Shown here: positions 1,771 to 33,506 of the stretch, piece by piece
How positions within the stretch are numbered: the first letter of the stretch is position 1
Layout of the letters: each line of letters opens with the position of its first letter
Source of the DNA: Catajapyx aquilonaris
Lineage: Eukaryota
Assembly: GCA_000934665.2 (NCBI GenBank)
Contig: JYFJ02004130.1
Coordinates: 1-34,570 of the forward strand
Length of the DNA: 34,570 nucleotides
Direction of reading: 5' to 3'
Program-made: the position numbers and the translations under genes
Notes under the pieces: generated by a model
The model's database searches: none
The model's input: only the letters and a program-made list of their open reading frames with translations
What the model was told of the DNA's origin: nothing

Positions 1771-3683
1771 ATGGACTTAAATAGGACGACAAGAGATGTC
1801 CCGCGTGCGCGTGGTCGAAAACGGCTACGAGAAGAGAGAAATTGGAAGGAAAATGTCCGGAAGACACTCAAACCCAAAGGTAATATTAGGCCTCTCTGCC
1901 TCCGAACAAACATCGAATGGTCGGACGGAGTTCTTGGGAGAATATCCCACCCTCGTCCCTGGGTTGGACCCGGCATTGCAGTACAGCCGGGTCCAGCCCT
2001 CCTCTCCCCCACCCTGCTCACCCCTCTACCTTGCAATCCCACACCTTCCTCTCCTACCCCCGGCTGCCAAGGCTAGAGCTGGGTAACCCTTCCAAACCAA
2101 CCAACCAACAAACCAATGAACAAACAGTGCAGCATAAGAGAGTTGGTTTGTGCATGCGTGAATAATATAGACACACTGACACTATAAATGCGCAACTCTC
2201 AGGTCAGGTTTACGTCCCCAAAAGAGCCTCGAAAAACACCTGTAGTTGCTAGGACACTCCAGGAACTGCCAATGTGTCGGTGTCATTGCTCCTAGAAATT
2301 TTCACTTGAAGAACGAGGAGCAGTACTACTGCAACGTTTCAATGACATTGGCGACCATGTGAAACAAAACGTCTACCTACAGGGATGCTTGCAGTTACAT
2401 GAGGTAGGTAGGCCTACACTGCAATTGAGAATGAGAAGGTCATGCTTCTGGTACTGCAAAAAAAATAATGCTGTTGTATCCAAGATAACTTCCTGTGACT
2501 ATAGTCTGAAATATTTTTCATTACCTATATATCTTTAAAGGTGAAACAGAGGCGGAAGCGGGATGTCCCTGAGGAAAAAAGAAGACAGCCCAAGACGTGC
2601 TCATACAAGTACATTGTTACTGTCAACAACATATCCACCACAGTGTGCAAGAAGTCATTTTGTGCACTTCATTGTATCACGGATGCACGCGTACGCAAGA
2701 AGGTACAAGGTGGTGAGGCACACACAGATAAGAGAGGATCAAAAGTACCACCAAATAAGACATCTTCTGACATGTTAGAAAGGGTGACACAACACATCTC
2801 TAGCTTTAAAGCACGTGAGTCACATTATTCCAGAGCCAAGGCAACTAACAAGCGGTATTTAGACGCGAAACTGAACATTTCAAAAATGCACAGCATGTAT
2901 AATGCAGAAAACTGTGGATTCAAGTGTAGCTACCGCTTCTACCGTCATGTATTCAATCATGAATTTAACATCAAATTTGGGTTTCCTCGAAGCGACATAT
3001 GTGCCACTTGTGAAAAGTTGGCAGTTGATATTCGTGACACAGAGAGGACAATCACGTCAACATCAAATGCTAAAGTTAAGTATATGATGCAAAAGCCCAT
3101 TTGGGAGAAGTGACAAAACTGCTTGACATATACATCACAGGAAAGGAGAGGCGTTTTATACCACACGTAGAGAACTTCGTGACAAAGCAAAACTTGATAA
3201 CACATACTGTGTTATTGCTATGGATTTTCAAAAAAACCTGCCACTGCCAGTAACTAATGTTAGTGTGGAATATTACAAGAGGCAGTTATGACTTAATGTC
3301 TTCAACATCCAAGACATGGGAAATGATAAAGCTATCATGTACACATGGGCAGAACACTACACTGGAAAGGGTCCTGACCAAGTCATATCATGCTCAGAAA
3401 ATTATATTTTAGAGAAAGTGGGTGAAAATCCAGACATGACACATGTAGTCATTTTTGCCGACAACTGTGCTGCTGCACATAATAAGAACATGTACTTTTT
3501 TGGTTTCCTGCATTCTATTGTAAATAGGCTGAAACTACATTCTGCAACTGTTCATTACCCTATTCCTGGGCACAGTCGTCTACCTTGCGATGCAGACTTT
3601 GCCCTTGTGGAAAAAAGGCGGCGAAAGATAGATAAAGTCTACACCGCCGAAGATTGGATAGAGGTCATTGAAGAATCTAGGCA
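1771..3683 (+). pseudogene. Decayed, intron-containing Sola1-like DDD transposase
   Basis: Motifs RKRLREERNWKENVRK..G-Q-V-Y, VCKKSFCALH, HISSFKARESHYSR, FGFPRSDICATC, MDFQKNLPLP..YYKRQL, YTWAE..GPDQVISC, FADNC..HNKN and GHSRLPCDADF..E match remembered Sola1-type transposases. Putative introns are 1880-2202 (phase 1) and 2404-2540 (phase 0). There are in-frame stops and frameshifts near 2240-2295, ~3110 and ~3290. A palindromic insertion at ~3684 truncates it. Confidence 0.75.
1913..2117 (+). mobile_element. Short retroposon with (CCAA)n tail, copy 2, more 5'-truncated, inside the transposase intron
   Basis: Near-identical to the reverse complement of ~340-550. Direct repeat GAACAAACA at 1904-1912 and 2118-2126. 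Confidence 0.75.
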
Positions 3684-4498
3684 AATGTTGCTAGCTAGAC
3701 CATCTCGGATTTTGCTGAAAATAATCACAATTGTACACACCTATGCCATAACACTGCATCTCAAGTTTCAGCCAAATTTCTAAATACCGTTGGGAGGGAA
3801 AAAATCGTGAAACTTTGGAAATTGGGACTTTTTTTGGATAATTTTGTTCGGTTGTTGGAAGTGGTCAAAACCCAATCAACGTATACATCAAATGAGATGA
3901 AAGAGAGAGGAACAAGGAAAATGTGGCTATATAATTTGTTTTTACGAAAATGCACCCAGAAAAACCTGTGGAGCATTCCATCGGTCACATGCTCAGCACC
4001 ATGTCCAAGTATTTAGACCCCAATAATAAATTAGTGATGTATTTTTGTTTAAGAGCGGCCATATTTGGTGACAGGAGTTGTTACCCGCACAAGATTTAAT
4101 ATGTTCAGATTCAATTCTGGGTCATGCATGGCTCGCCAGAACATAATGGATATATGTTTTGCCGAATTACCATTAATTTTGATGGAGCAAAATTCTTGGA
4201 CATGTGACTGATGCACACACGTTTTTCTGGTTACATTTCAGAGGAAAACAAATAATTCCATGCGCGCATTCTCCTGGTATTTCTCTTTCATTTGATGTAC
4301 TGTATATGTAGATTGGGTTTTGACCACTTCCACTAACCGAAAATAATTATCCAAAGGGCCCCATTTTCAAAGTTTCGCGATTTTTTCTCTCCCAATGGTA
4401 CTTAGAAATTTGGCTGAAACTTGATAGGCAGTGTTGTGGCATAGCTGTGTACAGCTGTGATTATTTCCAGCGAAGGTCGAGATGGTCTAGCAACATTT
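3684..4498. mobile_element. Foldback/MITE-like element with long imperfect inverted arms
   Basis: ~3684-3960 is the reverse complement of ~4250-4498. Example: AAATGTTGCTAG..CAAGTTTCAGCCAAATTTCTAA versus TTAGAAATTTGGCTGAAACTTG..CTAGCAACATTT. Confidence 0.75.
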
Positions 4499-6602: not shown

Positions 6603-6608
<6 letters not shown>

Positions 6609-6692
<84 letters not shown>

Positions 6693-6950
6693 GATACCTC
6701 CTGGATAAGCCTCCTTGGGATTTTTAGGGGATCATCTTTTAATTGACCGACTTTAATCATTGCCTTTGATGTGATGGATTTTGATTGCGGGAGGAAACGG
6801 GAGAACCCCGAGAAAACCCACGCGAACACGGAGAGAACCCATCGAAACTCTATCCAAATAAGTATCCTCTGTCCGATCCGGGGATCGTACTCGGGACCTT
6901 AGAGGTGGAGGGCTGCGGCGCTAACCACTCCGCCACTGTGTCGCCCTCGA
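6609..6950 (-). mobile_element. tRNA-derived SINE with V-domain-like core and (TTA)n tail, copy 1
   Basis: On the minus strand: A box TGGCGGAGTGG, B-box-like GAGTACGATCC and core GCGTGGGTTTTCTCGGGGTTCTCCCGTTTCCTCCC. (AAT)n tract at 6605-6690. TSD AATTATGTAATA at 6597-6608 and 6951-6962. A second copy lies at 32161-32420. Confidence 0.9.
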
Positions 6951-8340: not shown

Positions 8341-11300
8341 TTAAATAGACACTGGAGATCGTGAAGGGGCAATCCGTCGACGTGTGCCTGTGCCTGTTCC
8401 TAAGAACACGTTGAAATCATTCTTGATGATCTGAGGCATATCCGCCTTTCGTCTACGATGTCCATACATGGCCTGTACCAAATCAACATACATCATTATT
8501 AAATTGAGGTTAAACACCAATGGATTGTAAACTCACCCATATCTGTTCCACAATAAGAAAAAAAGTGCTGAGAACGAGTCCCGTACATAGAAAGATATAG
8601 AGGAAAAGTACCTCCCCAAAGGAGGCAGAAATGGCTTTGTCTCTGGTACATCTCTTCAGCTGGGGAAGGAACCTTTTCCTCATTTCGTGCACCAGACCGG
8701 ATTCCCTCAACCTCAGGATTCTGAAGAGAGAATTCAGGAACGCTTTACCGGCGACAGGAATAGTTCTGGCTGTCAAGTCAGTATGAATAAGTTTCATTCA
8801 CAGAAAAAATATAGGCTACCAGATTTCCAGTAAATAAAAATTAACAAATTTGAAGAGCAGTCTCAAAAATTTAGTGATTCATCAATTTACCATTTTAAGC
8901 CAGTGCAGTAGTGGACTTACGCAAAATTGAGCATATTTCGATAAGGCCAGTTCTTTTTAATGGCAAATGCCAACCCTCCCGGCAAGTAGTTTCCAGGCAG
9001 TTCGATTATGGAGCAACTCAGGTCAGTGGGAAGCTGCTGAAGATAGTATCGGACCCCGTCTTTGACGCCCATAAACACGTAGTTGTCACCAAGAGCTTTC
9101 TGTACTCCTTCCGAGTACGACGACACCAGATTATCCGGACTTCTGCTGACTATCCTGTCCCACAGCTCCATCAACCAATAACATTCGGATGCTGGGTCTG
9201 TTTCTCCTCGGCACAGGCTCTGCCCAAAAATGGTTACAAAATCATACTCACGAGTAAGGGTTATTATGTAATCTGTTCTAAATAATAATGTAGCAATGAA
9301 AAAGTAGGTTCTCAAATAAATTATGTCAATAACGATTTCCAATAGATTGTTCTATGACACAACACAGAGCACAAAAATATGTTATGGTCCACTAAGCTTT
9401 TAGTTCCAATAATAACTGTTAATAACACCTGCATTATGCTCTGAATCTACATAAGGATATACCTCCATGGCAAGATTGGCCAGGTCTCCTCGAATGGGAC
9501 CTGCCTTCCACTCCTTGCTTTTATGCACCAGTCCTTCAAGATCACGAAAAGGCCAGGCAGGTTTCAGCGCTACGGCTAGATGAGAGGTCAGAGTAGCGGA
9601 GTAGCAGTTGAAAATAATGAGGAAGGCAACTGCTCCCAGCCAAAATAGTCCCCGACCTAACAGAGACTCAGGCAATGTGGCGGAACCTGAAGAATATTAA
9701 TTATGACACTGTTATGTAACCACATCATGCCGAAGAAACACCTATAGCAATTAGACGCATACCTGTTTGACAGAATGCTGCAATCACACTGATATAGCTG
9801 TCAGCAACTGTAAGGGGAGGCTCCTTATCATTGGGTTTCCTTCTTCTTCTCTCAACTAGCCATATAGTAGCCCCGATGCTTACGAACAGAAGAAGAGTCA
9901 TCAAGTATACCACGGGCGATAACGGATTCACGTAGAACCACCATTTAGTCTCAAACAGTCCTTGTGTTCGCATGTACATGCGACGGCTGAAAGATGATAG
10001 AAATTACAAGTAGTTTGACACTATACTGATGCGCCATAGTGTAATACCTTGTAAAAATAATTGATTGGCTGAAATCAATGGCGTCGAGTCTGTCGGTCGT
10101 GACGGACACTTCGCTGGATGTGATGTCGGCTTCCCCACGGTTCAGCATACCAATCATGCCAGTCCAGCTGCCGTTCACCATATTTCCGTAGGCGTATCCC
10201 TCCAGAATGGTTATGTTGTACCTGAATTAAAACATAGCACATTTCAGATTTGAAAGGCAGAAATTAATGAGCAAGCAAGCATACCTGAAGTTCAGCTCGT
10301 AAGCAATGAGCTCGAAGAGACTGGAGAACATCCCTCCAGAAATGTTATATCCGTTACTGGTATTCGCGTATTCCCCGTAAAATGGAGCTACCTGCGAGAA
10401 CATGTAGTTGAAAAGGAGTGCCTATTCACTATTCGAACTGACTCATTGTAATGGAGAGTGTGGAAGATTATCACTAGTGATTAAGCAGCCATCACAATCC
10501 AAAAGTTCTAAACTGGATCGTTGTCTTGAAGAGGACAACTGGGGTACGATTGTGCATTATCAGGCAATGTTGCATGCCTGTCCTCGAAGATGCCCTTGGA
10601 CTCACTCCTTTCGCTAACAGATACCTGATGATCCCATGATGAGCTCTGTTAGCCACCTCCACAAAATGCAGCATACTCTGAAGCGACTGATTTATTTATA
10701 AACCCGATGAATGTGAGTACAGTATTATACTGTCATATATACTGCTTGCGACATTTTGTGATGCGGAAGAAGTGAAAATCGAAATGATAGTGTGAGCCGT
10801 GCGAGTAAGAAAAGGTAGGCCTTGAGTGACGTCACCGGCTGGTGGGCAATGGAGAAAAGGCGTGTCCCCAGCTAGTGACCTCACCCAAGGGCTACCACTT
10901 CTTACTTACATGTCTCGCATTCTATCACTTCGATTTGCACGTCTGCCGCATCGGAAAATGTCGCTAGCAGTATGACGGAATTAATGTCCAGCACTGTATA
11001 TACATGGTAAGAAGGGGCCAGTTAGTAACGTTATATCAGAGTCTCCTCCGTTTCTCCTATTCTTCCTCACTCTCCCATATAGCCTACATGGTGACACTTG
11101 CATTACCTGGATTCCCACCGCTTTAACCATCGCTCCTTGCAAGTCTTTTCTTCTGATCAGCTTATTTTGAATTTGAGACAGATCCCAGCCGGCAGACTGG
11201 TTCCAGAATCCTCGTGGGGAGAAGCTTATGTTGCACATGTCGCACACTCGGTACATGTCGTCAAGCTGCGTGTATTGGTGCATTAAAGTGGGTTCACATC

Positions 11301-15146: not shown

Positions 15147-16613
15147 ATTTGTTCCACCCGAGATTAAGGCGTCTATTACGGACGGACTCGTCCATAGTCA
15201 ATATCACAATGACTGCATGGATAGGTTTTCTTATTTAAATGTGCAACAATAATTTTTAGGCAGCACCTACAGAAATGTGTGGTACTCCATTTCGCCTTAA
15301 AATTCGAGTGATCATTTAGACTTAAGTGTAACGTTTTCCCTTCTGTGAGACCTCGTCTGGAAGAATGAAGTTTTCTTCACTTATTTTTGCATAACCACAA
15401 ATGCTTACTTCCCAACCAAGTTTCTTTTTTGGAAAAAAAAGGTGTAGATACGTCAAATATTTAGTGATGGCTACAATTTTCTCACGCCATTATTTCATAT
15501 GTACTAACAGTTATGGTAGTACTTGTGTTACAGCTGCCTTTTAATTCACGAAACTTCTGCTTACATAATATGATACATAAAATGGTGCGACGAAGGAATA
15601 ACAAGTGCACAGTTCTCAGTCTACGAACTTTCTTGGCTCTGTGGTTTGATATGCGTTTCTTTCTCAAACAGACTTGTCTGGGAGAGAAAATGTTTTGCTG
15701 TGGTCAAAAAAGTTTGACAACTTTAGAGAAACAAAAAGAAGTTTGAGAAGGCCAGATCATCAATTGATTTTTTCAATCGAGGATTTGCATGTCATCTCAG
15801 GGTCATGTCACGTTCAAAACAAGGTATAATAACGCGAAATTGCTGGCAATGGAATCGCCCTCCCCCCAGACATGCTAGTCGCTGTTAAATTGCGCGGTCA
15901 CACCACTTTCTAAAAACAGCTAATATTACCTACAATATAGGATTCATGCTTGTTGCGACATTGTGCAGTTGCATGATTCAGTAAGCCCCCCCCCCCCCCA
16001 CCCCATTGCTTCGTCCTTTATGAACTCTCAGAGAAGTAGAAACTAGGAAATACAGCTTGTTGAGATACGCCATATAATCATCCTGCCATATGCTACGTGT
16101 AGTCTCGGGCAGGAGGAAAAGGCGTCACAACACATCCTCCACACACTAAACACTTATATTGGGTCGCAGTTGAGGTGCTGCTTCTGGAAGCATCTCGACG
16201 ACTCCAGTCCTGCCAAAAGAAAGAGTGCACACATAGTCATCTCCTGTCGTTAAAATATTTGCAATCTTTATTATTACAATATTGTTTGTTTGTTTGTCCT
16301 GGTTTGGTTACCATGCTCAAATAACTATTTAAAAACACAGTACTCCTATTTTGAGTCAGTGCCCTTGAATCAGGGGCGACATCCGCATTGGGTACTGCAG
16401 TAAACCCTCAGAGCCCCACCTCATATAAAATTACGTAATATCAATTCACCTTATCATTTGTTGAAATTTTTAGATGAATGGCCCCTATGGTCGTAAAAAG
16501 TACTCATAAAAATTTCTTAGCTCTGCATAAAACAATCGCGTGTCCAAAAGTAGGCACGGATATATGTTCAACCACAAGTTTGGATACTCACAGAGTCAAT
16601 ATGGTTCCACACT

Positions 16614-19519
16614 CTAATCAGCGGGAGGGGCATCATCGGCATTCCCTTCCCCATCAATTGGAGCTGCTTCTTCTCCGTCACCTTCCGGAGGTGCACCTTC
16701 TTTCTCTTCTTCTTCTTCAGCAGGTGCTTCTTCCTCCTCAGCCGGAGCCTCCTCCGACTCTTCCTCAGCAGGGGCTTCCTCTTCAGCGGGAGCTTCTTCT
16801 TCATCTGGGGCTTCTTCGTCTGCTGGTGCTTCTTCTTCAGCTGGAGCTTCCTCCTCCTCTGCAGCAGCGTCTTCGCCTTCAGGTGCTTCTTCCTCAGGTG
16901 CCTCTTCCCCTTCCTCGGGTGCAGCTTCTTCTTCTGGTGCCGCTTCCTCCTCCTCGGGTGCAGCCTCTTCTTCAGCAGGTGCTTCCTCTTCCTCAGCACC
17001 TCCTTCCTCAGGCGCTTCTTCAGATTCCTCTGCAGGAGCTTCTTCTGCAGGAGTCTCTTCCGTCTCCTGCTCTTCCTCTTCCTCGGGAGGAGGAGGTGCT
17101 GATGGAAGGTGATCTTTTGGTGCCATGTTTCCGTTTCCCTCTTCTTCTGCTAGAAAAGAATGCATAGAAGGCCTGTAGCTTCCTGCTGGCTACCTACCGT
17201 CAGTCGTGACCAGGCACTAATGAGGTCTTTGCGGTATGCGGCAGAACCTACGGAGGACACCACAGCAGTGCGCAGACGTTGCCAAAGAAACACGAGGCGA
17301 TATCCAATCAGAAAAATGTATTGTCGTTTTATGGTTGTCACTGGCTTGTTGGCCCATCGATTACCTATTAAACTACTGCACAATATCGCTGCAGTATACA
17401 GTGCCGGTAGGCGTTACTTGAAATGCAATGAAAGTCGTTCGCATGCGGGTTGGAACCAAAGAAGATCGGACATGCACTAGGAACTGTCTCGTCATGGTAT
17501 ATTGCACTAGTATATAGCATTTCCTGGAAATTCCCTTAATGGCCATTACTGCAGAAACTATTGAGTCATGATGTTCCACGATTCTGCATTATAGTAACCA
17601 TGGATGAGCAAATAAAGTACATGATTAAGCAACCAGGAAGCCTGTTTCTCAATTCAGGTCATTTCTTTGAAACAACGGAGTTGTTGGGTGATGCCTGTCA
17701 GTGATATTTTTTTTTAAAAAAAAAACTTGTAGCGTGCAAGAGAAGCAAACATAAAAAGAAGTATAATCTATCGCGCAAGTTTGATGAAATAGAGGGCAAT
17801 AATAGTGGGTCATGGAACTCAATCGCGCACGACATTTATTTCAAGCATTTCTCCAAGAAATATGCAAAGAGATGCCAAATTATGATGTGTACGGTACACA
17901 GCGCCAGTGCACGGGACTTGTAAACACGAATCTAAGCAGCCTAGGTAAGGATCATGACACGTGATGGACACGAATCCTATTAATAGTGCATAGCTGGCGC
18001 GCGACAGGTAGAGTTCGTGACCCCTTATATTCCGGAGCTCCCTAGATGGTTTGCTAGGCCGATCGATTTCAATGGTCATCGCCCACAAGCTTCTACGTAT
18101 ACAACAGCAATGACAACAACATTTAGGTAGTTTTGTGTCACTAAGGTATTTTCTACGCACGCAATGTGGTCAAAGTGGCATCATTTTGGCGATAGTTATG
18201 GTGGAATTGGCCCGTTCGCATATTTTTTGAAATACAGTAATGTTTTACGGAGTATTGGACACCTGTACTAACAGCTGCTCTTTTCCACGCCCTTAGAAAG
18301 AGTCCATAAGGCGCAATAGGGTATTGAAAAATTAGCAACCTGTACTATGTGGGCTGGTCTGACTACTCGCTCGGTTGGAAATGAGTGTGTCATAAATAAT
18401 GCGAGGGACTCTGGCTGACCATCACACGCAGAGTCCAGTCAATAGCGGAGGCTTATTTGGGCACTTATCGATAGTTCATACAGGGTGGAGCAAAAGCACA
18501 GAAGGCTGGTTCTCTAGCATACACACTCGATATGTTTCTTGCACACAAGTGTTTGCTGACATCTGCATTTTAGAGCAACTCAGATGCATTTGTGTCAAAT
18601 TTTTAACAAACTTGCAATGTTGTGTTAAACTACTCATTAATTGAGTAGGATATGAATAAATTTGACTCTACAATACGGTATTGACCAATTCCACTGAAAA
18701 CACGTGAAATGCTTTATAAAGTGACACATTGCTAATGCACCACCCTGTATACCCCACTGTCGTCATGGCGCACAAGCCTTTTTCCCGGAGGCCCACGTAA
18801 TACCTTCTCACTGTTCTCGGAAAGGCCTTAGTTACTTCCACGTCTCTAGCGTGACAACGTGTAAGTTTCACGACATGTCGCCTGTGGGTCCATTTCACCC
18901 GTATCCTGAATCTAAGGTGTCGTAACATTTATCAAATCGGTTCAGGGCTACTTGAATCATTACTACAATGCATTGGTGTCACACTTTCTTGGAATCATAT
19001 ATGGCCCACAATAGTATGTCAAATGGGTGAATAACCAAAATTGCTAGTTTCGAGATGATGATAGTTTATATTATGCATGCTCAATGAGCTTTAGATAGGC
19101 TTTGACGTCGATACAAGAAAGATATTTCCTACCAGCTCAGTGCGTCATTGATCCTTTCAAGGAAACCCATATACGATCAAACTGATATATCCCTGGCCTG
19201 GATGTTGATTTTTTTTTTTTTTTTTGGGGGGGGGGGGGCTACACTGTGATGAATCCGCACCTGAATTTGGCTGCTCCTCCGGAAAGGCCTGAAGTTTGGC
19301 GTTGGGGGCGATAATATTGGCAAAGTGCTGATGGTTATCCGGAAAAGGATTCCCGTACAGTTCGTCCGGTCCAGGTACCCTCTCCTGTTGAAGCAATCTT
19401 CTCTTACTCCTAGGACTTAAACTTTGACGAAGATGCTGCTGAGGACCAGCCTGTCCTCTTGTCCCCTCCGATAAAGAACCGTTGAGGTGCAATGCAGGAG
19501 CACTGCTCGCACAGCCCAT
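16614..19519 (-). CDS. Uncharacterised, probably lipid-anchored acidic disordered protein (MGCASS leader plus Glu/Ala/Pro-rich repeat tail), ~264 aa
   Basis: Exon 1 is 19519-19261 (MGCASSAPALH..RQSLSPRSKRRLLQ..QPNS; donor G|GTGCGG, phase 1). It joins exon 2 at 17149-16614 (acceptor TTCTTTTCTAG|, phase 1; AEEEGNG..(EEEAPA)n..DAPPAD*). The repeat units differ at synonymous positions, consistent with coding. Additional internal exons cannot be excluded. Confidence 0.7.
18481..18747. mobile_element. Degenerate Tc1/mariner-type MITE in an intron
   Basis: TA|CAGGGTGG ... CCACCCTG|TA, with partial further complementarity. Confidence 0.45.
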
Positions 19520-20548: not shown

Positions 20549-22269
20549 TTGATGTAGATTTCAGTACCGCCTCTTCAAAATGTCTATGCTCTCTGGGTGG
20601 AATTATTCTCATGGTTGATAAGGGCCTTCTGGAGGATATAATATTATTTACTGTCATCTGCAGGGATAGTTAGTTTATAAAGTGATGCTATCATCTGTAT
20701 ATATAATCAGGTAAATATCAGATACTCGTAGTCTGGTACCAATAAAACACTGTATGTTGGATAACCTTGAATCAACTTGAATACTATTGTGACTATACCT
20801 GAGTGGGAGGCCTATTTCTCCATGCGTCTAGGCTCTAGGCCTTTGTTACCTCGGCTTCTCCAATAAATGAACACCCAATTCATTAGAAAATCAGACAGCC
20901 TCAGTGAGTTTTATTCCGTGAACGTGCATCATTAAAGTTACCACAACACGTTTAACCATTCAACAGTATAGGTCTTAAACGGTTTTGATTTGCTTATTGG
21001 TTCGGGCCTGACTCAATGTACTTGTAGATATGACTCATTTATCTTCATGACCGTCGTTATGTACAGGCGGCACTTTGAATGTCATAAGCTGATTGGTAAT
21101 GATAACGAAACAAAGTATCTTGGAATAATTTTTTTTTTATCGGGCTGCCACAAGTTTTAGTGCTGCAAATTGCTCGCATAAGAATGCCAGATCAATTAAA
21201 ACTCATGTCAGCGGTTTCGTTCTACAGATTTTGATGTTACTTTTTTGTCTGACATTATATTACGGCAATTTAGTTTTAGCTGTCAGGGGAATACACAACG
21301 GTATCAGGGGCTAAAATAATGTATAACAACGTTAACTTCAACAAAAGTTTCTTGGTTCAACTGGAATAATTTCGTGGAAATAATTTGTTACCCTCCCTCC
21401 CCACAGTTTGTTAACTCCTGTCGTTATAGTGACCGAACAATGCAGATATTCGACAATAATATTACGATTGTCATGTTGGTGCTTGGTGGATCAAAATGTG
21501 CATGCCTCCACACGTCCATACCAGCATCCATACCAGTCCATACCAGGACGTGTGGTGGTTAAATTTCAAAGTGGGGGGGGATATTATTTTCTGGGGTCAC
21601 CAACGAAAAAGACTGGGAAGCACTGCCATAGATGAATGTACAAAGAGCGGAGCAATTCCTGTTTGCAGAATTTCATTTGACACTTGTTAGAGCTACGTAC
21701 TGTACCGGAAACACTATTGTGATGGAAAGTGAGAGACTTTATGGTAGTCATACAAAAAGAAACAAAAGGAAATATTACAAACTTTTCCATAATGAAAATG
21801 CACTTCATGAACATAAATTACTTGTGCTGAAATAAAATCAACTTTGACAAGTTCTTCCTTATGCGGTTTGGCTGTAACAGCAATGTTTGCTTTTTAGCAA
21901 TGTTGTGCTGACAAACCTTTGCATACACTTCTTATATAACTTTGACCAACCGATGTACATGATTGTTTTCAGGTGGGCTATCAAACATAATTATGACGGT
22001 ACAATTCAGGAAAAGCATTTTTCCTGCATGTATCATTCAAAACAGCAGTAGGCTACATATTGCAGGTACTATTCCCGACATATGCACAGCAAGTTGGCAT
22101 TGTTGTGTGAGCAAGAGTAGGTTAATAATATACGTATATTATCATTATCGCACTTGCTCAGACTAAGCACGGTACCATGGCGGACAATCAATGCCAGGTT
22201 CTGGCCAATCCCTAATTCCTCCCACCAGCCACCAGATGGTGCAGCCCAGGTGCAGCCAGCTATCGTAAT

Positions 22270-22686: not shown

Positions 22687-22863
22687 CAGCTATCGTAATT
22701 AATTCTTATTTAACAATTTGAAAACACTTTCTGTTGCCTGGAAGAGGCCTGGAAGAGTGTGGGGAAAAAGGACTATGAAATAGTGCATTAGGATTCATTA
22801 CATTTAGATTGCCGCGTAAGATATTAGTTACTTCACTCTTACTTGAGCTGATTGAAATAACAT

Positions 22864-23128
22864 GAAGGGGAGACAATGCAAAGGTCCTAAATGCCAAACC
22901 CCTGATTTTGAGTTATGCATGTTTCTTTCTCCTCAACAAAACAAAACAACATAGGCAAACTCCCCATCTACTGGCCAAATGCAGAACCTTAATGATTTTT
23001 CTGGCACTTGGGACTTCTACCCAACATTGGTGATGGTGATGGCCAGGTGATGGCACTAGGATACCTTGACACTCATAACTCAAATGAGGATTTTTTGGCA
23101 CTTAGGACCTTTGCATTGTCTCCCCTTC
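22864..23128. mobile_element. MITE with ~33-bp TIRs
   Basis: GAAGGGGAGACAATGCAAAGGTCCTAAATGCCAAA / TTTGGCACTTAGGACCTTTGCATTGTCTCCCCTTC. Confidence 0.8.
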
Positions 23129-24031
23129 TACTGTTACATGAAAAATCGCGGGTGACATGAATATATCATTGGTGGCATCAGATTTAGAAGTATATTTTCC
23201 AGATAGGGACTCATAAACTGAGACATAAAGCACTTTTTGGATGTAAGTTACTCACAAGAAAACATTACATTTGTAGTGCTTGTGTTGAAAGGGCGTAGGG
23301 TTGTGAACTTGTGATTATAGTATGATCATTCCTCTACGCAATCGCACACTATAATCTCAAGAGTGGCAAGTCACCAAAAGTTTTTGGAAGCAGTAAATGA
23401 ATTTTTAACATTTCTGACAATGCATGTGCCAGTAGGCAATAGATTGACACCTCTCTAGCAGTGACTCATAGCTAATAATTTTTTAACTGATAAAGGTTAA
23501 TCAGATGTGACAAAAAATATATATTTAAAAATATCATCCACCAAGAGGAAATGAAAGTTCGGCAATTGGCATATTCCTGCTGTGCAGGATTCCCTACCAA
23601 CACGTTTTACTGTATAAATATATACGTACACACATGATGAGTACAAAGGTGACAATTATCGTACCAGTACCGGAAATGTGAATAATGGTTTCAGGTAGTG
23701 ATGCCTTGATAATTCAAGTTTTATTGAGAAACATGAAGAAAGAAATAGTCATTTTCATTATAAAGGCAGGTCTGATTAGTTCACTGAAAAATAAACCTTG
23801 ATACCGGTAGTGTACTTGAAAGTCCCATCCTACAAAAAAACATAAAAAATCCATCTGACCTAATTAAACTGGCTATGTAACACATTCCTCACTTTTTTTA
23901 AAAAATCACCAGCTAGCCCATGAAAACAATATTTCAAGATCATAATAGAAAACGTCACCCAAAGTGTTTGGAAACTGTAATATATTATGCAAAAAAAAAA
24001 AAAATCAAAGCACAAGTCTTGCTGTTTCATA

Positions 24032-27000
24032 CTAAAGAAAATACATGGGGAAGTTTTTAGACAGGCGCTGATGGACAGCTGTTGCCGATTCCAGAGGTTT
24101 CAGATCCTCTCTGTTGTAGGGCACTCCATGAGCCATGGCACTGGAAAGGACAAGTCTGAATTTAGTCCACATAATAATTATTATGCACAGGGCACAACAC
24201 AGTGTAATTTTTGCATCATTTCCACAATCGATGCTGAGAGAAGGGCAGTTGGTATGAAGAAATATTTTCAGCATTTTTACAAACACGCTGTAACCCCTCT
24301 AAAAGTAAGAACGTGGAAGTTTCGCATTGTAGACTTGTAGTGCAGCCCAGCCATTACCTCAGAGGCGAATATGTAAAGGGGGCGAAAGCTCCGGGAGGCA
24401 TAAAAGTATGGGCCACGACTCCTGATCCAACCCTTGTATGAGCACAATTTATTCAAAAACGATTACGCTTGCTGACTTTAAATTTGAAAATTGATCAGGT
24501 CAGCCAAAGAGAGTGCAGTGAGAGAATAAAAAAGCCATTTCTATTTAATTCTAAAAGTTCAGAGATAGGGAGGTTTTGAAGATATTACAGTATTATATCG
24601 GAAACAGACCATCATGGTAATCTCTGAAAACATGTTCACTGGGCTACACTGCCGTCCCATAGAGAAACACCGTAACTCAAAAACCAGTGAGGGTGAAAGT
24701 CGTGTGCATGCCCTGCACTAATCCCCCCTGACTCAGGAAGGATTAGTGCACGACCAAGAAGGTAATGTGTAAATAACTGACCACTTTATGAGTCTCAACC
24801 TCCTTTTGGTAGCCTTCACTGCATAGTAGTAAGGGGCAGTGTTGGCTTGCACATAACCTCCTCTTTTAGCGAAATTGACTGGAAAGCACAAGTGGATGCC
24901 TATTTGTACAATGTCATCCACAGAGAAGTCACTGTCGTCCAAAAGAATAAAATAATCCACTGGTTTCAATAGGCCCTGGAAGGAGAAAATCAGGAATTAG
25001 CATACCAGGTTATATCATTATCATTCTACATTGACCATGAAAGAAATAACATAGACTGACTTTCAGGGAACACATACACATTCACATGAAAAAAGTTCAT
25101 GAAACAGTGAGTGTCGTGGTGGTGGGGCTCGCATTTTTCCCGTGACCCCAAGAGCTGTGCCGGTGGTACATTTGTCTGCTGGCATGGCCACCCAATTTGA
25201 ACATGCCTTTGGGATAGGAAACAGACTAAGAGAGATACCACTCTGTCCTCCCTTCTTTTTACTCGTCTTTTCTCTCTCCATCTGTCCCACCTTTGTGTCT
25301 TCTCTCTCTCTCCCTCTCTCCCTCCTAATAAACCTAAACCAAACCATGAAACATTGTGGGGTTGGCCACTACTCTTTGAGTGTACACCTTTTTGTGGTTA
25401 TCCCTAATTACATGCACTCTTTGTTAGGAAACACATGAGAATTCTTGTGATCAGGTGTGATTACATGACAGTAGGTGAATGGATAAGTATTTACATTTCC
25501 TGGCCGGTAGGGCACATGGAATCTAGTCGTCCTTGTGGGGGTCAAAGTGTAATTCACTACTGTTCCTCTTAATCCATGGTTTATAAGCTGCATCTCATTT
25601 TTCTTGACTTGTTGCCAGGAAGGGACATCAGTGTTAGCCACCATGAAAGTGATGGCTGGCTTGTAGTCAGGGTGGAGGGATGTGCAGGCACCACGTATTG
25701 CTAGAAGCCAGTTGTGCAGTATATCGTAGAACTGATTGTCAGTCAGTTCTTCCATCAAGACTATTACTCGGCATGGCTGCTTTGTAGTACTCCTGAAAAG
25801 CAGTTCATTAAATACATCTTTATTCTTCATTTAAGCACAGCTTTATTTAGGAGCAGTTATTAATTTTATTATGATACTTGTTTGGTTCATGCTGGGCATC
25901 TTAAGCTCAGTACAATATTTAACAGTTTAAATCTTACTTAGACCATACCTGAAAAACATATGAAGCATGTTCTTCACAATTTCCTGAAGGTCTCTGATAT
26001 TTTCTTCCCCACTAGGCTGCAGCCAAGTGGTTGTGGTGAATCTGGTGGCTATCAAGTCTGTGGAGGCGCATATGGCTGCCACTGACGGGAAGGTTGGCGA
26101 CTCCAGCGTATTGGTGTGTGCACTCAGAATGATGGTTGGCAACTCGGGCCTAAATATCACACGATCTACAGCAAACTGGGCGCCATATGACAGGTTTGTC
26201 ATACTGGATCCTGCCATCATGGCACTTATATCGTCAGACAGCTGAGACAGAAACTGTACTCGCCTTGCCATGACATTCTTTTTGCTCACACACTTGGTCA
26301 GCACTCCCACTTTTGTGTCAGCTGCAAGCTTGACAGATGATACCATGTCCTTGACACACATAACTACCAGCACAATTTGCAGATCACACATCTCTGCCAG
26401 GTCATTCTCCAGGTTTTGGAAGAATTGTATGGTGGTAGGTTGGGGTAGTTCCAGCCCATGGCCAACACAACTGATTGAACGCAGTTGTTGGATGAATCTC
26501 CTGGGGAAGTTATGAAATATGAGTAATTGACCTCTTAATAATTCATTCACAAAGTAATTGACTCTGACAGGTGAGTGGAAAGTAAGGATGGGTTCAATCT
26601 TGACAAGTACGAAAAATGACTCATTACTCACTCTACGTCATTGTTGCTGATCTCTCCCACGATATATACACCCCAGCTGTTAACAGTTAGCTTATGGTCA
26701 GTTGACATGTCCAAGTAGTCATTTCGAAGTCCACCTGCAGTCATATCAGAGCCCTGCACGCATTCAGTGGCAAGCTCCTCACCTTCTCTATATACAATCT
26801 GTAAGCCTGGAAAAAATGAAATGTGCATGAACATTTATATGTAATGTAATGGTACACAACTATCAAAATTACTAATTATTAATCCAGGATGTATCCTTAA
26901 TATAATGTATAATATTAATAACATTAATCCAGCAAGGGAATGATGGAAGTCAGGATCACCTGAAGCTTTGGAGTCAACCGAGGATCCGGAATCAACCTGC

Positions 27001-27068
27001 TGTGTGCGGGATGTGGCAGGCTCAGCAGGCTGAGAAGCTGATGGGAGAGTGGACATTATCGCGCCCAT
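24032..27068 (-). CDS. Divergent Argonaute-derived protein with L2 end, MID and PIWI only (no N/PAZ seen), predicted slicer-dead, ~478 aa, 6 coding exons
   Basis: Phase-consistent GT-AG exons: 27068-26960, 26806-26632, 26500-25949, 25792-25495, 24975-24782, 24140-24032 (1437 nt, no stops). The translation is collinear with AGO-clade motifs: IVY..LATECVQGSDM, SWGVY, ERFIQQLRSIS, LQIVLVV, VKLAADTKVGVLTKCVSKKNV, PSVAAICASTD, EENIRDL, STTKQPCRVI, LLAIRGACTSLHPDYKPAITF, KPVDYFILLDDSDFSVDDI, APYYYA and C-terminal VHQ..PMYFL*. Confidence 0.85.
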
Positions 27069-28184
27069 TTCGGACGGACGCCGGACGGGAGGTCCACACA
27101 GGGAGCAGCGTAGCACTGTCAATGGGTAAGTACCGATTAAGTACACAACAGTCAACAGAGAATGTCTTATCTGTGTGTCCAAGTCACTATACCAAAGAGA
27201 TGGCCTTTCACTGCTCTTTCCAATCCCTGGTGTAGTCTCCACGTGATTGCCTCCTATCGACTATATAACCTAACCATATGCAGTAACCAGCCTAACACAA
27301 ATTAATTCCCCCCACCAGCCACCAGAGGATGCATCCAGGGGTTCAAATAAGATTAATAATTTTTTGCACTTTTAAAGAGAATTTCAGTTGCTAGGAAGAG
27401 TGTGTTGGATAGGACTCGAAAATATGAAGGCTAATTAGTATGATTAGTATAATAAGGTATAGTGTGATATTAGTTATTTGCAGGACTTAGCAGCCTTAGA
27501 ATAACTGTTATACATTTTTAAAAAAACTGCTGGCGATGTGAAATCCATAGGCAATGTTCTCCACAGATTCTCCAGATATCTACGGATGAACCGAAATGAT
27601 AATTATGAGTTATTGATAAGAATTAATTATTGATTGAGAAAAACAGTAAATGCGGTTAGAAGAACTAGTCACAAGTGCACATTAATTACAATTACCTGAA
27701 GGGTCTCCATGTTGTTTAAAATTATAGAAATGCAACATACAGTAGGCTACATTACCTGCACAAAGTTTTGCATCAATCTAGCCCATCATCTTCACTTATT
27801 ATTGTCATTATTGCTTTTGTTAAAAACCTGGATGCTGAAGCGAACAATCATTAACTTAATTCATTCTGTCCTAACTCTCCTCTGCATTCATCAAAATGGT
27901 TATGTGCAAGTTCCAGACACATGTTTCAGTTACATCAAATAATGCTGACCAACCCCCGGACACTACCCCTATAATCTTATCTTATCGCCTGAGTTTTGTA
28001 TGAGGTGCTCACTTGAGACCGCCATGAGACCGCCTTTCACTGACATTATGTGGCGACCCTACCGGACCGCGCTGAACTTAGGTAGAAGAGAATAAGCGAT
28101 TCGAGTCGATGCCATCGATCGAAGCACCTATCCGCACGTATAACAATATCGAAGCCTGCCAATGCGCTAATTCAAATCTAGTCA

Positions 28185-29786: not shown

Positions 29787-29787
<1 letters not shown>

Positions 29788-29853
<66 letters not shown>
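29788..29853. repeat. (ATT)n microsatellite
   Basis: Read directly from the sequence. Confidence 0.95.
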
Positions 29854-29914: not shown

Positions 29915-30060
29915 TTACACAACTCTTACCTGACATATAAACCCACTCTGAATATTCAGTATTCTATTCTCTGACGTGTGACCCTCTTAACTCTTTTTAT
30001 CAAAACTTTAGCATACACTTTCCCTGGTACACTTAACAGACTAATGCTACGATAATTCTT
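29915..30060 (-). pseudogene. Fragment of a non-LTR (RTE-like) reverse transcriptase
   Basis: The minus strand translates as KNYRSISLLSVPGKVYAKVLIKRV, followed by a disrupted SGF..GKSC. This is the start of the RT domain. Confidence 0.8.
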
Positions 30061-30066
30061 ACATAA

Positions 30067-30107
30067 TGATGATGATGATGATGATCATCATCATCATCAT
30101 CATCATC
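30067..30107. repeat. Head-to-head (TGA)n(TCA)n microsatellite palindrome
   Basis: Read directly from the sequence. Confidence 0.9.
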
Positions 30108-31596
30108 ACAAATTCACTACCTCGTTATGGTAGCGTGTCCTACGTGTCCCCACCTTTGTCATGATAGCCACCTTGTGAATGGCAGTGTCGACCTTGTTGA
30201 CATTATGGTGTTACAACAATGTGCGCGCCATCTTCTCTGGTTGAATAGGAGATACGATAAAAGCGACATCTCAGAACCAACAGTATCGTTACTCCTGTGA
30301 TTTTGCCAGCATGTAGGTTGCAGCAGATACGACATTATGATATCAAATTGCACCAAAATTGGAGTTACGACAATACAGCACGGAGCCCTCGAATATTAGA
30401 GTTGCAGACTTTTTACACCCCTGCAAGTTAATAGTTATACGTAACCGTAGCAATTAACCCCCGTACCCATACCCATTATTACCCGTACTCCAGCACATAC
30501 CTATATGAGACGTGAGTACACCGCCAGTGAACGCGAGTGGCCGCTTCTCTGCAGGTGGCACCAACCCTTGGACAGATGACACTTGCTCTCTCCTCTCGGA
30601 TGGTTGTGATTAACTGGAAATATGCTCCGATGTGGATGGAATGGGTATGACGGCCATGGTGATGCTGCACAACCCAATCGACCGCAACCGACACAGACCG
30701 ACACGCGAAAAGCCGGAAACTGACGTGTTTGTCATAGTTACCGTATCCGGGTAAGTGAGATTTATTTATTTTGTCAAACGGGAATTGAATTAATATCCGT
30801 ATGTGCCCTATCCATGTACTTGTCGTCACATGAAAGGCACAGGCGACTCCGGAACCGCATAATAAATCAGCTGACTACCTGGACGAAAATGGCAACTCTG
30901 TAATGAGCTTGATTTGAATTGTTCAGGGCGGAAAAATTCAATATGTGCCACACCCATTTGCTGGTCATTTAAAAATAATTGCGCAGGTAGTTCAAAGACA
31001 CTGCAGAGCATTATTGTGGCACGCAAACAATCGGAATGCCAACAGAAAGATGGTCATCTGCGGTTGCACCGGTCGCGGTATGGAAAACGGCGGGTTTTCA
31101 CTCGATATACCGCGAGAAGTGTTGCACCACCTACGGTTTTTCTAAAACGGCACGTTCTCCCTCCCATTTACCGCCCGATCCATCTACCCGCCTGCAGCGC
31201 AAGTTGCTTCCGCGGGTTTATAGGTGTTGTCAATATGGTTGCGGACTGGTGCTAGGGATTTCGTGTAGCCTACTGTGTGACACCGTGTGGCAACCCTGTC
31301 ACATGGTTGCCGTAGATACTAGACGACTACCCATACTTCCATGACGTCACGGGTGCTGCGATCCAATCAGCGCTCTCCTAAATTTTTGCCCGCTTACGTC
31401 TCTCATGGGCAGTAGTAAAGTTAATAATAATGTTAATAATAATTAGTCCAAAATCAACAAGTCAAAACCACGTAACTCGAATAATACTAATTTTTCAGGA
31501 GAGCAAAAAAACTGAATAAAAAATTACACTTGAATTGAGATTTAATCGGATTTAATCTTTTAACCTGGCCATATATAATATATAAATAATAATATA

Positions 31597-32158
31597 CAGG
31601 GTGTTTATTGTAACTCTGCAAAGACTTTCAGGGGTAATAGAGGGGACCAAGACAAGTATTTTTGACATAGGAATCTGTGTCCGGAAACGCCATCTAGAGG
31701 GGGTTCATAGACAAGGAACGGGTGCGCTCAGACGCTTCATGCGGGAGGAGCTAGGTGAGGTGACTGTTTTGTTGATAGATAGCGCTCGGATAGTAAACAC
31801 TAATTGGATGTGCCATAACCTGGCAACAGCAGAGTCATCTAGCAACTAAAGTCCGCCACCTAGGAGACGCGCGGATAGTCAACAGCGGTTCTGTTGTTGC
31901 CAAGTTATGGCGTATCGCGTTGTTGTTTACTTACTACGACGCGATACGCCATAACCTGGCAACAACTGCGCGCCACCTATCAACAAAACAGTCCGCTCTC
32001 CTAGCGCCTCTCGCCTGACGCGTCTGAGCGCACCAGTTCCTTGTCTATGAACCCCCTCTAGATGGCGTTTCCGGACACGGGTTCCTATGTCAAAAATACT
32101 TGCATTGGTCCCCTCTATTACCCCTGAAAGTCTTTGCAGAGTTACAATAAACACCCTG
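31597..32158. mobile_element. Tc1/mariner-type foldback MITE with ~190-bp inverted arms
   Basis: TA|CAGGGTGTTTATTGTAACTCTGCAAAG ... CTTTGCAGAGTTACAATAAACACCCTG|TA. The arms produce the mirror-image ORFs 31601+ and 32154-. Confidence 0.9.
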
Positions 32159-32160
32159 TA

Positions 32161-32420
32161 TAATGGATACCCCGTGATAGGCCCCTTGGGCCTCTTAGGG
32201 GATCATCTTTTGAATACCCGACTTTAATCATTTGCCTGTAATGTGATGGATTTTGATAGTGGGAGGAAACGGGATAACCCCGAGAAAACCCACGCGAACA
32301 CGGAGAGAACCCATCGAAACTCTATCCACATAAGTATATCCTCCGTCCGACCCGGGGATCGAACTCGGGACCTTAGAGGTGGAAGGCTGCGGCGCTAACC
32401 ACTCGGCCACCGTGTCGCCC
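32161..32420 (-). mobile_element. tRNA-derived V-domain-like SINE, copy 2, with its tail split by the MITE
   Basis: Highly similar to 6690-6947. A box TGGCCGAGTGG and B box GAGTTCGATCC. TSD ACCTGGCCATAT at 31563-31574 and 32421-32432. Confidence 0.9.
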
Positions 32421-32734: not shown

Positions 32735-33506
32735 TAAGTGAGTAAAGTGCCACTTTGCAGGCTTGTTTCATTTCCTTTCCTGTCAGATGATGCCTCAGCC
32801 ATTTTATTTTTTGTTTCATTTTCCCTCTTTGATTCTTTGTTAATGATGCATCCTCATGTTCAAGTAGTATCGAACAGCAAAAGCCATAATGTCCTCTTTA
32901 TGATATAGCATGGAAAGCTGAGGACAACTGTGCTCATTACCTCTTCTACTGTCCTGTCATATGCATTGGCCTTCATACAGTACTCGCAAAGCATGTCTCT
33001 ACAAACCTGATGAATTCAAAGAACTGCCTATTCGGATGAATCAACCCTCCACGGGTCTTCATGTTCACTAGTTTCGCTGACACTTGCTGCGAAAATCTGA
33101 CTGGTGATCTCAAAGCTGATTTGCATTTTGCCCACTTTGTGTGCTTGACGATTTGCTTGACCAAATATCCCGCAACATAATATAATGCACAGTCAATTAC
33201 AGGTGCACAATTGTAATCATGTTCCAATGTGTCAGTGAACTCCCACTCCGTTGTCTCGATAAGTTCTGTGAATTTTTCATTCAATGCTTCAACAGCTGAC
33301 GGTTCAGGAGTGCCCGAGAATATTTCCTGTAAATCACCCAGTTCATATAGAGGTTCTGTTGGTGTGTCATCGTTTGCACTGCAGTTGCCATATTTTGGCG
33401 GTTTAAGAAAACTGTAAAAAGACAAAAGCTTGTAATGCTGCAGAAATGTTGGTGTTGCTGGATGCTGCTAGCCCCCTGCTGCCAGCCTGATTACACCAAA
33501 GAAACA
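32735..33506 (-). pseudogene. Decayed P-element/THAP9-like transposase, C-terminal exon
   Basis: After the acceptor TTTCAG| at 33506 it reads CFFGVIRLAAG (frameshift) HPATPTFLQHYKLLSFYSFLKPPKYGNC..ALYYVAGYL..KTRGGLIHP..HKEDI-like..YYLNMRMH, with several stops and frameshifts. Confidence 0.8.

Follow-up and report, generated by a model that had tools for sequence, protein, structure and literature searches.

Animal Argonautes are generally treated as invariably four-domain, guide-loaded proteins, and the known ones are full-length. Short prokaryotic Argonautes also bind guides. According to three accounts, those of the SPARTA, SPARSA and SPARDA type consist of the MID and PIWI domains only and have an inactive slicer site (PMC6299218; bioRxiv 2025.04.08.647717; 10.1101/2024.10.10.617571). 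Here we describe a spliced Argonaute-like gene on the minus strand (27068-24032; Table 1) of a 34,570-nucleotide (nt) contig of Catajapyx aquilonaris (JYFJ02004130.1), the whole of which is referred to below as the window. We interpret the locus as a lineage-specific branch of the AGO clade that has evolved very fast and would encode a MID-PIWI lobe alone, behind about 76 non-homologous residues. Our preferred reading, held tentatively and with slightly less than even confidence, is that the product would be a genuinely short pseudo-Argonaute, one that has preserved the fold but given up slicing and the anchoring of a guide.

The likeness to short prokaryotic Argonautes lies in the MID-PIWI-only architecture and the inactive slicer site; the gene differs in being eukaryotic and spliced, with five spliceosomal introns, and the AGOs of eukaryotes are its nearest relatives. 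Neither an APAZ- nor an effector-like neighbor was found among the Pfam-scanned open reading frames (ORFs) of the window, PADLOC not having been run. The resemblance is at most convergent. The pocket of the product is degenerate. The analogy to guide-using short Argonautes drawn in the original prediction is weak, because the product has lost the residues for slicing and for anchoring a guide, a loss that the prediction did not mention. The product is closer to human AGO1 to AGO4 of the animal AGO clade, in which MID and PIWI likewise run collinearly to the C terminus and the chain ends in MYF, but it differs from them in having no N-L1-PAZ-L2 lobe in the window and in the residues discussed below. 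Nematode WAGOs, which keep the PAZ domain and the guide pocket, and the trypanosomatid PIWI-tryp, which is not known to have a recognizable PAZ, are also lineage-specific, fast-evolving and without a full slicer site; both differ in lying outside the animal AGO clade in the sense meant here. PIWI-tryp is named in PMC9935688. MED13, of the Mediator kinase module, has a eukaryotic Argonaute fold whose nucleic acid interface is not in its usual use, as one account describes it (10.1101/2024.10.10.617571). It differs in having all of the Argonaute domains plus a long disordered insert, whereas the present gene would be a recent AGO-clade derivative; no Med13 family signature was among the Pfam matches of the six exon translations at an expectation value (E) of ≤1. 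A literature search with a few phrasings, which is no proof of absence, found no described animal or other eukaryotic short Argonaute.

Rejoined by script from the strand sequence, the six exons give a coding sequence of 1,419 nt, that is, 472 amino acids (aa) and a TAG stop, and not the 478 aa first proposed. The six canonical, phase-matched exons and the stop-free frame of the original prediction are otherwise confirmed. All five introns run from GT to AG with pyrimidine-rich CAG acceptors, the exon phases are compatible, and the introns are 131 to 659 nt long (intron 2, 131 nt with a G+C content [GC] of 0.36; intron 3, 156 nt, GC 0.30). The coding frame has no in-frame stop, whereas the two alternative frames have 30 and 28, and the introns contain 24 to 35 stops per frame over 1,618 nt in total; GC is 43 to 57% in the exons versus 28 to 36% in the three short introns. 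None of the usual signs of a pseudogene (premature stops, frameshifts, broken splice sites, missing segments) was found; there are 0 stops in 472 codons, five of five introns are GT-AG, and all MID-PIWI blocks are there. Relative to the Argonaute profile described below, there are about 10 indels, every one of them in frame. Exon 2 is required, since retention of intron 2 would lead to a stop at the donor and no ATG lies upstream in the exon 3 frame. Two variants were rejected. An alternative exon 4 donor 33 nt downstream, picked out by eye, would extend a loop that already fits the family, and reading through the exon 5 donor would remove the conserved C-terminal motif. Intron 4 contains a (GA)n-rich stretch at about 25250-25330.

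Homology to Argonautes was measured with a profile of 850 positions. It was built from 23 of the 54 matches of an exhaustive search (see below), namely those that are full-length Argonautes. The spliced product scored 194.2 bits (E = 1.8e-61), its residues 77 to 471 aligning to profile positions 441 to 849, so that detectable homology begins with the first MID strand. Among 1,503 window ORFs of at least 15 aa, only those of exons 3, 4 and 5 were significant (E = 1.6e-30, 1.5e-8 and 4.7e-8); the exon 6 ORF alone fell at the correct place (profile positions 816 to 850) but was not significant (E = 13). Within the spliced product, exon 6 aligns to positions 816 to 849, at the end of the profile. 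The splicing model is supported because the spliced product, with 194 bits, scores higher than the exon ORFs added together (102 + 30 + 28). The alignment reaches residue 471, directly before the stop, and the family's hydrophobic end, MYF plus one residue, is present as KNFPMYFL followed by TAG, in agreement with the earlier claim that homology extends to the terminal MYFL. It had also been proposed that homology starts at exon 2 with the end of L2. This part does not hold: exon 2 alone scored -0.5 bits against an L2/MID subprofile, a score equaled by 299 of 2,000 shuffles, and it had no PDB or Pfam match. Only its last 18 aa (TVNSWGVYIVGE..) are aligned, to MID strand 1.

Pfam and PDB comparisons point the same way. 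The Pfam Piwi family (PF02171) was matched by three of the six exon translations, those of exons 3, 4 and 5, in collinear order (profile positions 11 to 139, 145 to 229 and 243 to 296) and with 28.1, 21.3 and 18.6 bits, each under the 28.9-bit cutoff when taken alone (E = 1.5e-6 for exon 3 and 1.2e-3 for exon 5). The proposed Pfam check thus succeeded for Piwi and gave no match for ArgoMid, PAZ or ArgoN; the MID region, which aligns to profile positions 441 to 580, and exon 2 were both missed by the ArgoMid and ArgoL2 models. Among PDB sequences, exon 3 matched human AGO2 at residues 504 to 654 (E = 1.3e-9) and AGO2 MID domain chains (E of about 2e-4), and exon 4 matched residues 657 to 708 (E = 2.1e-8). 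The PDB matches of these two exons were human AGO1 to AGO4, plant AGO10 and yeast Argonaute, with no PIWI-clade chain; exon 2 alone and exon 5 alone had no Argonaute match there. By these similarities, the gene is well supported as a probable derivative of the AGO clade, as originally proposed.

The lobe has largely kept the residues of the fold and mostly lost those of function. With AGO2 numbering taken from the PDB-sequence alignments of exons 3 and 4, the slicer tetrad D597, E637, D669 and H807 (profile positions 596, 636, 668 and 805) reads H, E, E and V and so departs from the DEDH of active members. The 5′-phosphate pocket Y529, K533, Q545, K566 and K570 reads V, K, K, D and M, one of five being kept, although the MID region itself aligns; pairwise alignment with AGO2 puts a gap, and not Val, opposite Y529. 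The basic motif KRHH.R is lost (T, D, V, P,., gap). We take these three groups of residues to serve, respectively, slicing, binding of the guide 5′ phosphate and contact with the guide backbone. We infer that the protein would be unable to slice and that canonical anchoring of a 5′-phosphorylated guide would be impossible for it. In contrast, the Glu of the glutamate finger is retained, as are the residues equivalent to AGO2 C691 and P700, the latter two in the best-conserved stretch. Across 41 Argonautes, the columns that are at least 90% hydrophobic are hydrophobic in this protein at 73 of 84 positions, and the surface columns (at most 20% hydrophobic) at 24 of 195. Invariant Gly, Pro or Ala was kept in 9 of 11 cases and invariant hydrophobics in 11 of 13, versus 7 of 21 invariant polar or charged residues (20/24 structural versus 7/21 polar; Fisher P = 0.0009). 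This pattern argues for a pseudoenzyme, with a fold that would have been under selection and a chemistry released from it, and is unlike uniform decay.

The protein is very diverged. An exhaustive phmmer search of 1.84 billion representatives gave only 54 proteins at E ≤ 0.001, the best with 36% identity, and the eight that were inspected were all ordinary Argonautes or Argonaute fragments. Identity to 41 Argonautes over MID-PIWI is 21 to 28.5%. A FastTree phylogeny of 42 MID-PIWI sequences, leaving out 13 of the 54 phmmer matches with fewer than 300 aligned positions, bore out the high divergence noted in the original prediction, with a terminal branch of 2.0 substitutions per site versus a median of 0.65. 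Close relatives were found neither by a word-based search with exon 3 for longer proteins (0 of 513 candidates) nor among metagenome contigs (210 pattern matches, none related) or viral contigs (20 pattern matches, none related). As a control, the neighboring ionotropic glutamate receptor (iGluR) exon is likewise missing from the protein collection, so the absence of the Argonaute-like protein there is uninformative and the genome is simply unrepresented.

The front lobe was sought throughout the window. None of the 76 minus-strand ORFs of at least 30 aa between 26.8 and 34.6 kb matched PAZ, ArgoN, ArgoL1, ArgoL2 or ArgoMid at E ≤ 1, and none of 128 further window ORFs of at least 62 aa matched any Argonaute family in Pfam. 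Outside the gene, a tblastn comparison of the 54 Argonautes with the window did not rise above noise (best E = 0.083), and profile positions 1 to 440 gave a positive score in none of the 1,503 ORFs on both strands. In a leave-one-out calibration on the 23 full-length Argonautes, the N-lobe score was 0.42 to 1.2 times the C-lobe score; a front lobe that had decayed like the back lobe should therefore give about 80 bits or more. These results argue that sequence coding for N-L1-PAZ-L2 is absent from the 34.5-kb window, including the 7.5 kb upstream. They bear out both the earlier claim of no PAZ or N exon upstream and that of a MID-PIWI lobe alone being encoded within the window.

Base composition gives a second view of the gene's extent. 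The gene lies in a CpG-depleted domain placed by a three-segment fit (log-likelihood gain, 30.7). The observed/expected ratio (o/e) of CpG is 0.35 over the gene, which puts it in the bottom 5 of 127 sliding windows of 3 kb, and reaches 0.70 to 0.72 in the downstream flank and 0.93 to 0.95 in the upstream flank (28.0 to 34.5 kb). Within the domain, TpG and CpA are elevated, the result that decay driven by methylation should give. The window is thus a mosaic with invertebrate-type historical methylation, and CpG in its flanks is not vertebrate-like. PMC8857923 states that methylation in most bilaterian invertebrates falls on transcription units rather than transposable elements (TEs), that historical germline methylation leads to CpG depletion and that stable expression tends to go with high gene methylation. 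Read with that source, the depletion suggests a self-contained unit that has for a long time been methylated, and hence transcribed, in the germline. On its 5′ side, the domain extends only about 0.9 kb past the proposed ATG, which would leave no room for the roughly 1.3 kb coding for an N lobe and disfavors a large upstream intron.

Exon 1 starts at an ATG (27068-27066) with G at both -3 and +4 and encodes a Ser/Ala/Pro/Thr-rich segment that begins MGAIMS; its GC is 0.57, versus 0.28 in the intron that follows. That it is Ser/Ala/Pro-rich and unlike Argonaute, as first described, was upheld: it had no Pfam match and no Argonaute similarity, and its ORF had no relatives among 24 candidates. 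The good start context, the usable donor and the GC contrast would fit a first exon such as the proposed 36-aa leader. An alternative in-frame ATG (26834-26832) lies inside intron 1, right after a stop codon.

Several points in this paragraph and the next weigh against a truly short protein. The gene could have the ordinary architecture of a full-length Argonaute, though a very diverged one. Its N-L1-PAZ-L2 exons would then be found beyond the window, at a distance of more than 7.5 kb upstream and across a TE-swollen intron, or within the window in undetectable form; we consider this account decidedly unlikely. The acceptor of exon 2 is strong, of internal type and in phase 1, as would be expected if one or more exons precede it. 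The proposed exon 1 is one of 19 upstream candidates with a comparable donor (173 phase-compatible ATG..GT combinations), and its frame is open upstream to 27260, so that it could itself be an internal exon. The TE-rich DNA upstream could be a large intron, and its young TEs may simply still retain their CpGs. The N lobe evolves faster, and in so diverged a protein its detection might fail; the escape of exon 2 and MID from the Pfam ArgoMid and ArgoL2 models indicates limited sensitivity. Known animal Argonautes are, again, full-length, and no lobe-less animal gene was found in the literature searched. Set against a full-length gene are the shortness of its other five introns, at most 659 nt, and an N-lobe signal that appeared at no threshold despite N:C ratios of at least 0.42 in 23 Argonautes. 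The CpG ratio of the upstream flank is also unlike that of an intron of a methylated unit, as such units are described in PMC8857923.

A young, nonfunctional partial duplicate has more in its favor and seems to us unlikely but a serious contender. On this account, the locus would be copied from the 3′ half of an Argonaute elsewhere in the genome that is full-length but had already diverged and lost catalysis. The frame would be intact merely for want of time to decay, and exon 1 would be a chance ORF. The locus sits amid TE debris, as the original prediction had noted (a weak RVT_1 fragment, a foldback element and copies like those of a short interspersed nuclear element [SINE]). The gene lies in a 5.1-kb segment with a copy of a 34-nt direct repeat on either side; the 16-nt core of the repeat, CCCACCAGCCACCAGA, occurs at only these two places in the window, with 0.02 expected, and the pair may represent the ends of a TE, sites of insulator type or traces left by a segmental insertion (the core resembles a CTCF-type motif). 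The CpG-poor domain is similar in size to that segment, as expected for import from a methylated locus, and CpG depletion would pass on to a recently copied segment. A CpG island at the putative promoter was considered and rejected, the o/e near exon 1 being at the window median. Exon 1 is not unique, and its ORF has no relatives. On the other side, a duplicate needs an unseen parent, its five splice-site pairs and exon-intron GC contrast are all intact, and the borders of the repeat and of the CpG domain are about 0.5 kb apart. If stops arise as often as in the introns (0.056 per codon), the probability that 436 codons evolving neutrally contain none is 1.5e-11; we estimate that the open frame allows a copy no more than about 2% neutral divergence, less than the 6 to 7% between TE copies in the window. 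The earlier claim of selection over decay stands as far as fold residues are kept and functional ones lost, and is weakened by the chance of a very recent partial duplicate.

A split Argonaute, in which the short MID-PIWI chain and a separately encoded N-L1-(PAZ)-L2 protein would together make a two-chain long Argonaute, is very improbable in our judgment. There is a precedent in AfAgo, a MID-PIWI protein long regarded as truncated, whose missing part is encoded separately as AfAgo-N, making a split long-B prokaryotic Argonaute (PMC10954474), and the MID-PIWI fold residues are kept here. AfAgo differs, however, in being archaeal and guide-binding, with its partner gene adjacent; no N-lobe-like ORF lies in the 34.5-kb window on either strand. 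A PAZ-bearing partner would, moreover, be without purpose once the guide-binding residues are lost.

Under the preferred reading of a truly short pseudo-Argonaute, the missing front lobe and the replaced guide residues make sense together, since a protein that holds no guide would not need PAZ or N. As a speculation, the product might bind other proteins without any guide, perhaps serving as a scaffold or decoy for those partners of Argonaute whose docking sites are on the PIWI exterior. If exon 1 is right, its MGAIMS start, which fits the MGxxxS/T pattern of N-myristoylation, might also tether the protein to a membrane. The decoy idea comes from the retained equivalents of AGO2 C691 and P700, which, according to PMC9262622, form Trp pocket 3. 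Two retained residues and one sequence motif are all that these ideas draw on, a further point to be set against them. That the gene is a genuine animal short Argonaute, expressed and maintained as a guide-free scaffold or decoy for Argonaute cofactors and possibly membrane-tethered by N-myristoylation, is a rather unlikely proposition.

The rest of the window contains other genes and repeats (Table 1). The best solved relatives of the iGluR exons are the ligand-binding cores of kainate-5, kainate-4, delta and NMDA-3A receptors, and no near-identical protein was found in a large protein collection. The DUF7869 ORF and the inverted repeats that it adjoins are probably a transposon remnant. On the minus strand, the tandem repeat would encode an acidic Glu/Ala/Pro-rich repeat without a Pfam match. 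The dispersed element of about 190 nt looks tRNA- or SINE-like; ARAGORN and Rfam call nothing there, and the tRNA (ARAGORN) and Rfam scans of the window as a whole gave nothing. The 164-aa ORF upstream of the gene may resemble the C termini of P-element/THAP9-type transposases.

Table 1. Positions of the features of the Argonaute-like gene and its surroundings in the window
Feature	Position	Strand	Remarks
Putative exon 1	27068-26960	-	Phase fits, GT donor; encodes 36 aa
Intron 1	26959-26807	-	153 nt, GC 0.28; size and AT-richness like those of introns 2 and 3
Exon 2	26806-26632	-	Phase-1 acceptor TTTTTTCCAG; first 40 aa without detectable Argonaute similarity
Exon 3	26500-25949	-	Remainder of MID and start of PIWI; degenerate 5′-phosphate pocket, D597 equivalent is His
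Exon 4	25792-25495	-	PIWI core; best-conserved stretch LLAIRGAC..DYKPAITF; YRDG to LMEE, QKRHHTR to ANTDVPS
Exon 5	24975-24800	-	C-terminal part of PIWI; YYAH to YYAV
Exon 6	24140-24032	-	C-terminal tail ..VHQRLSKNFPMYFL; stop TAG at 24034-24032
Candidate poly(A) signal AATAAA	23720-23725	-	First one 3′ of the stop, about 310 nt away; weak, motif occurs 55 times in the window
CpG-depleted domain	22701-28000		CpG o/e 0.37-0.38; TpG o/e 1.31, CpA o/e 1.32
34-nt direct repeat	22213-22246 and 27303-27336	+	30/34 identical, spacing 5,090 nt, brackets the gene
iGluR exons	9403-10226	-	Lig_chan-Glu_bd E = 3.4e-11, weak Lig_chan; animal-type, kainate/delta-like
DUF7869 ORF	3292-3780	+	Pfam E = 1.4e-9; adjoins inverted repeats
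Inverted repeats	3694-3845 / 4340-4491		152 nt, 84% complementary
Tandem repeat	16760-17063		13 copies of an 18- to 21-nt unit, within ORFs (16478-17189) open in several frames on both strands
Dispersed element, about 190 nt	6760-6946 and 32232-32420		Two copies, 93-94% identical
Foldback element	31593-31785 / 31970-32162		193-nt arms, 93% complementary, 184 nt apart; same open frame in both arms
164-aa ORF	32976-33467	-	Upstream of the gene, same strand; no Pfam match
RVT_1 fragment	29959-30084	-	Weak, E = 0.024
Long microsatellites (AAT)n/(ATT)n	6604-6692 and 29787-29853		

Should the locus be a young partial duplicate, it would be ordinary. The case also illustrates how orphan gene models can be assessed from the retention of fold versus function residues and from a domain of CpG depletion when transcripts and orthologues are not to hand. 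If the gene is a genuine animal short Argonaute that has given up its guide, it would parallel, in a eukaryote, the truncation that Argonautes have repeatedly undergone in prokaryotes, with a different outcome. If it is maintained, the PIWI lobe would be reusable as a stand-alone protein module in animals, and the product may act in nature to compete for or regulate the cofactors of RNA silencing.

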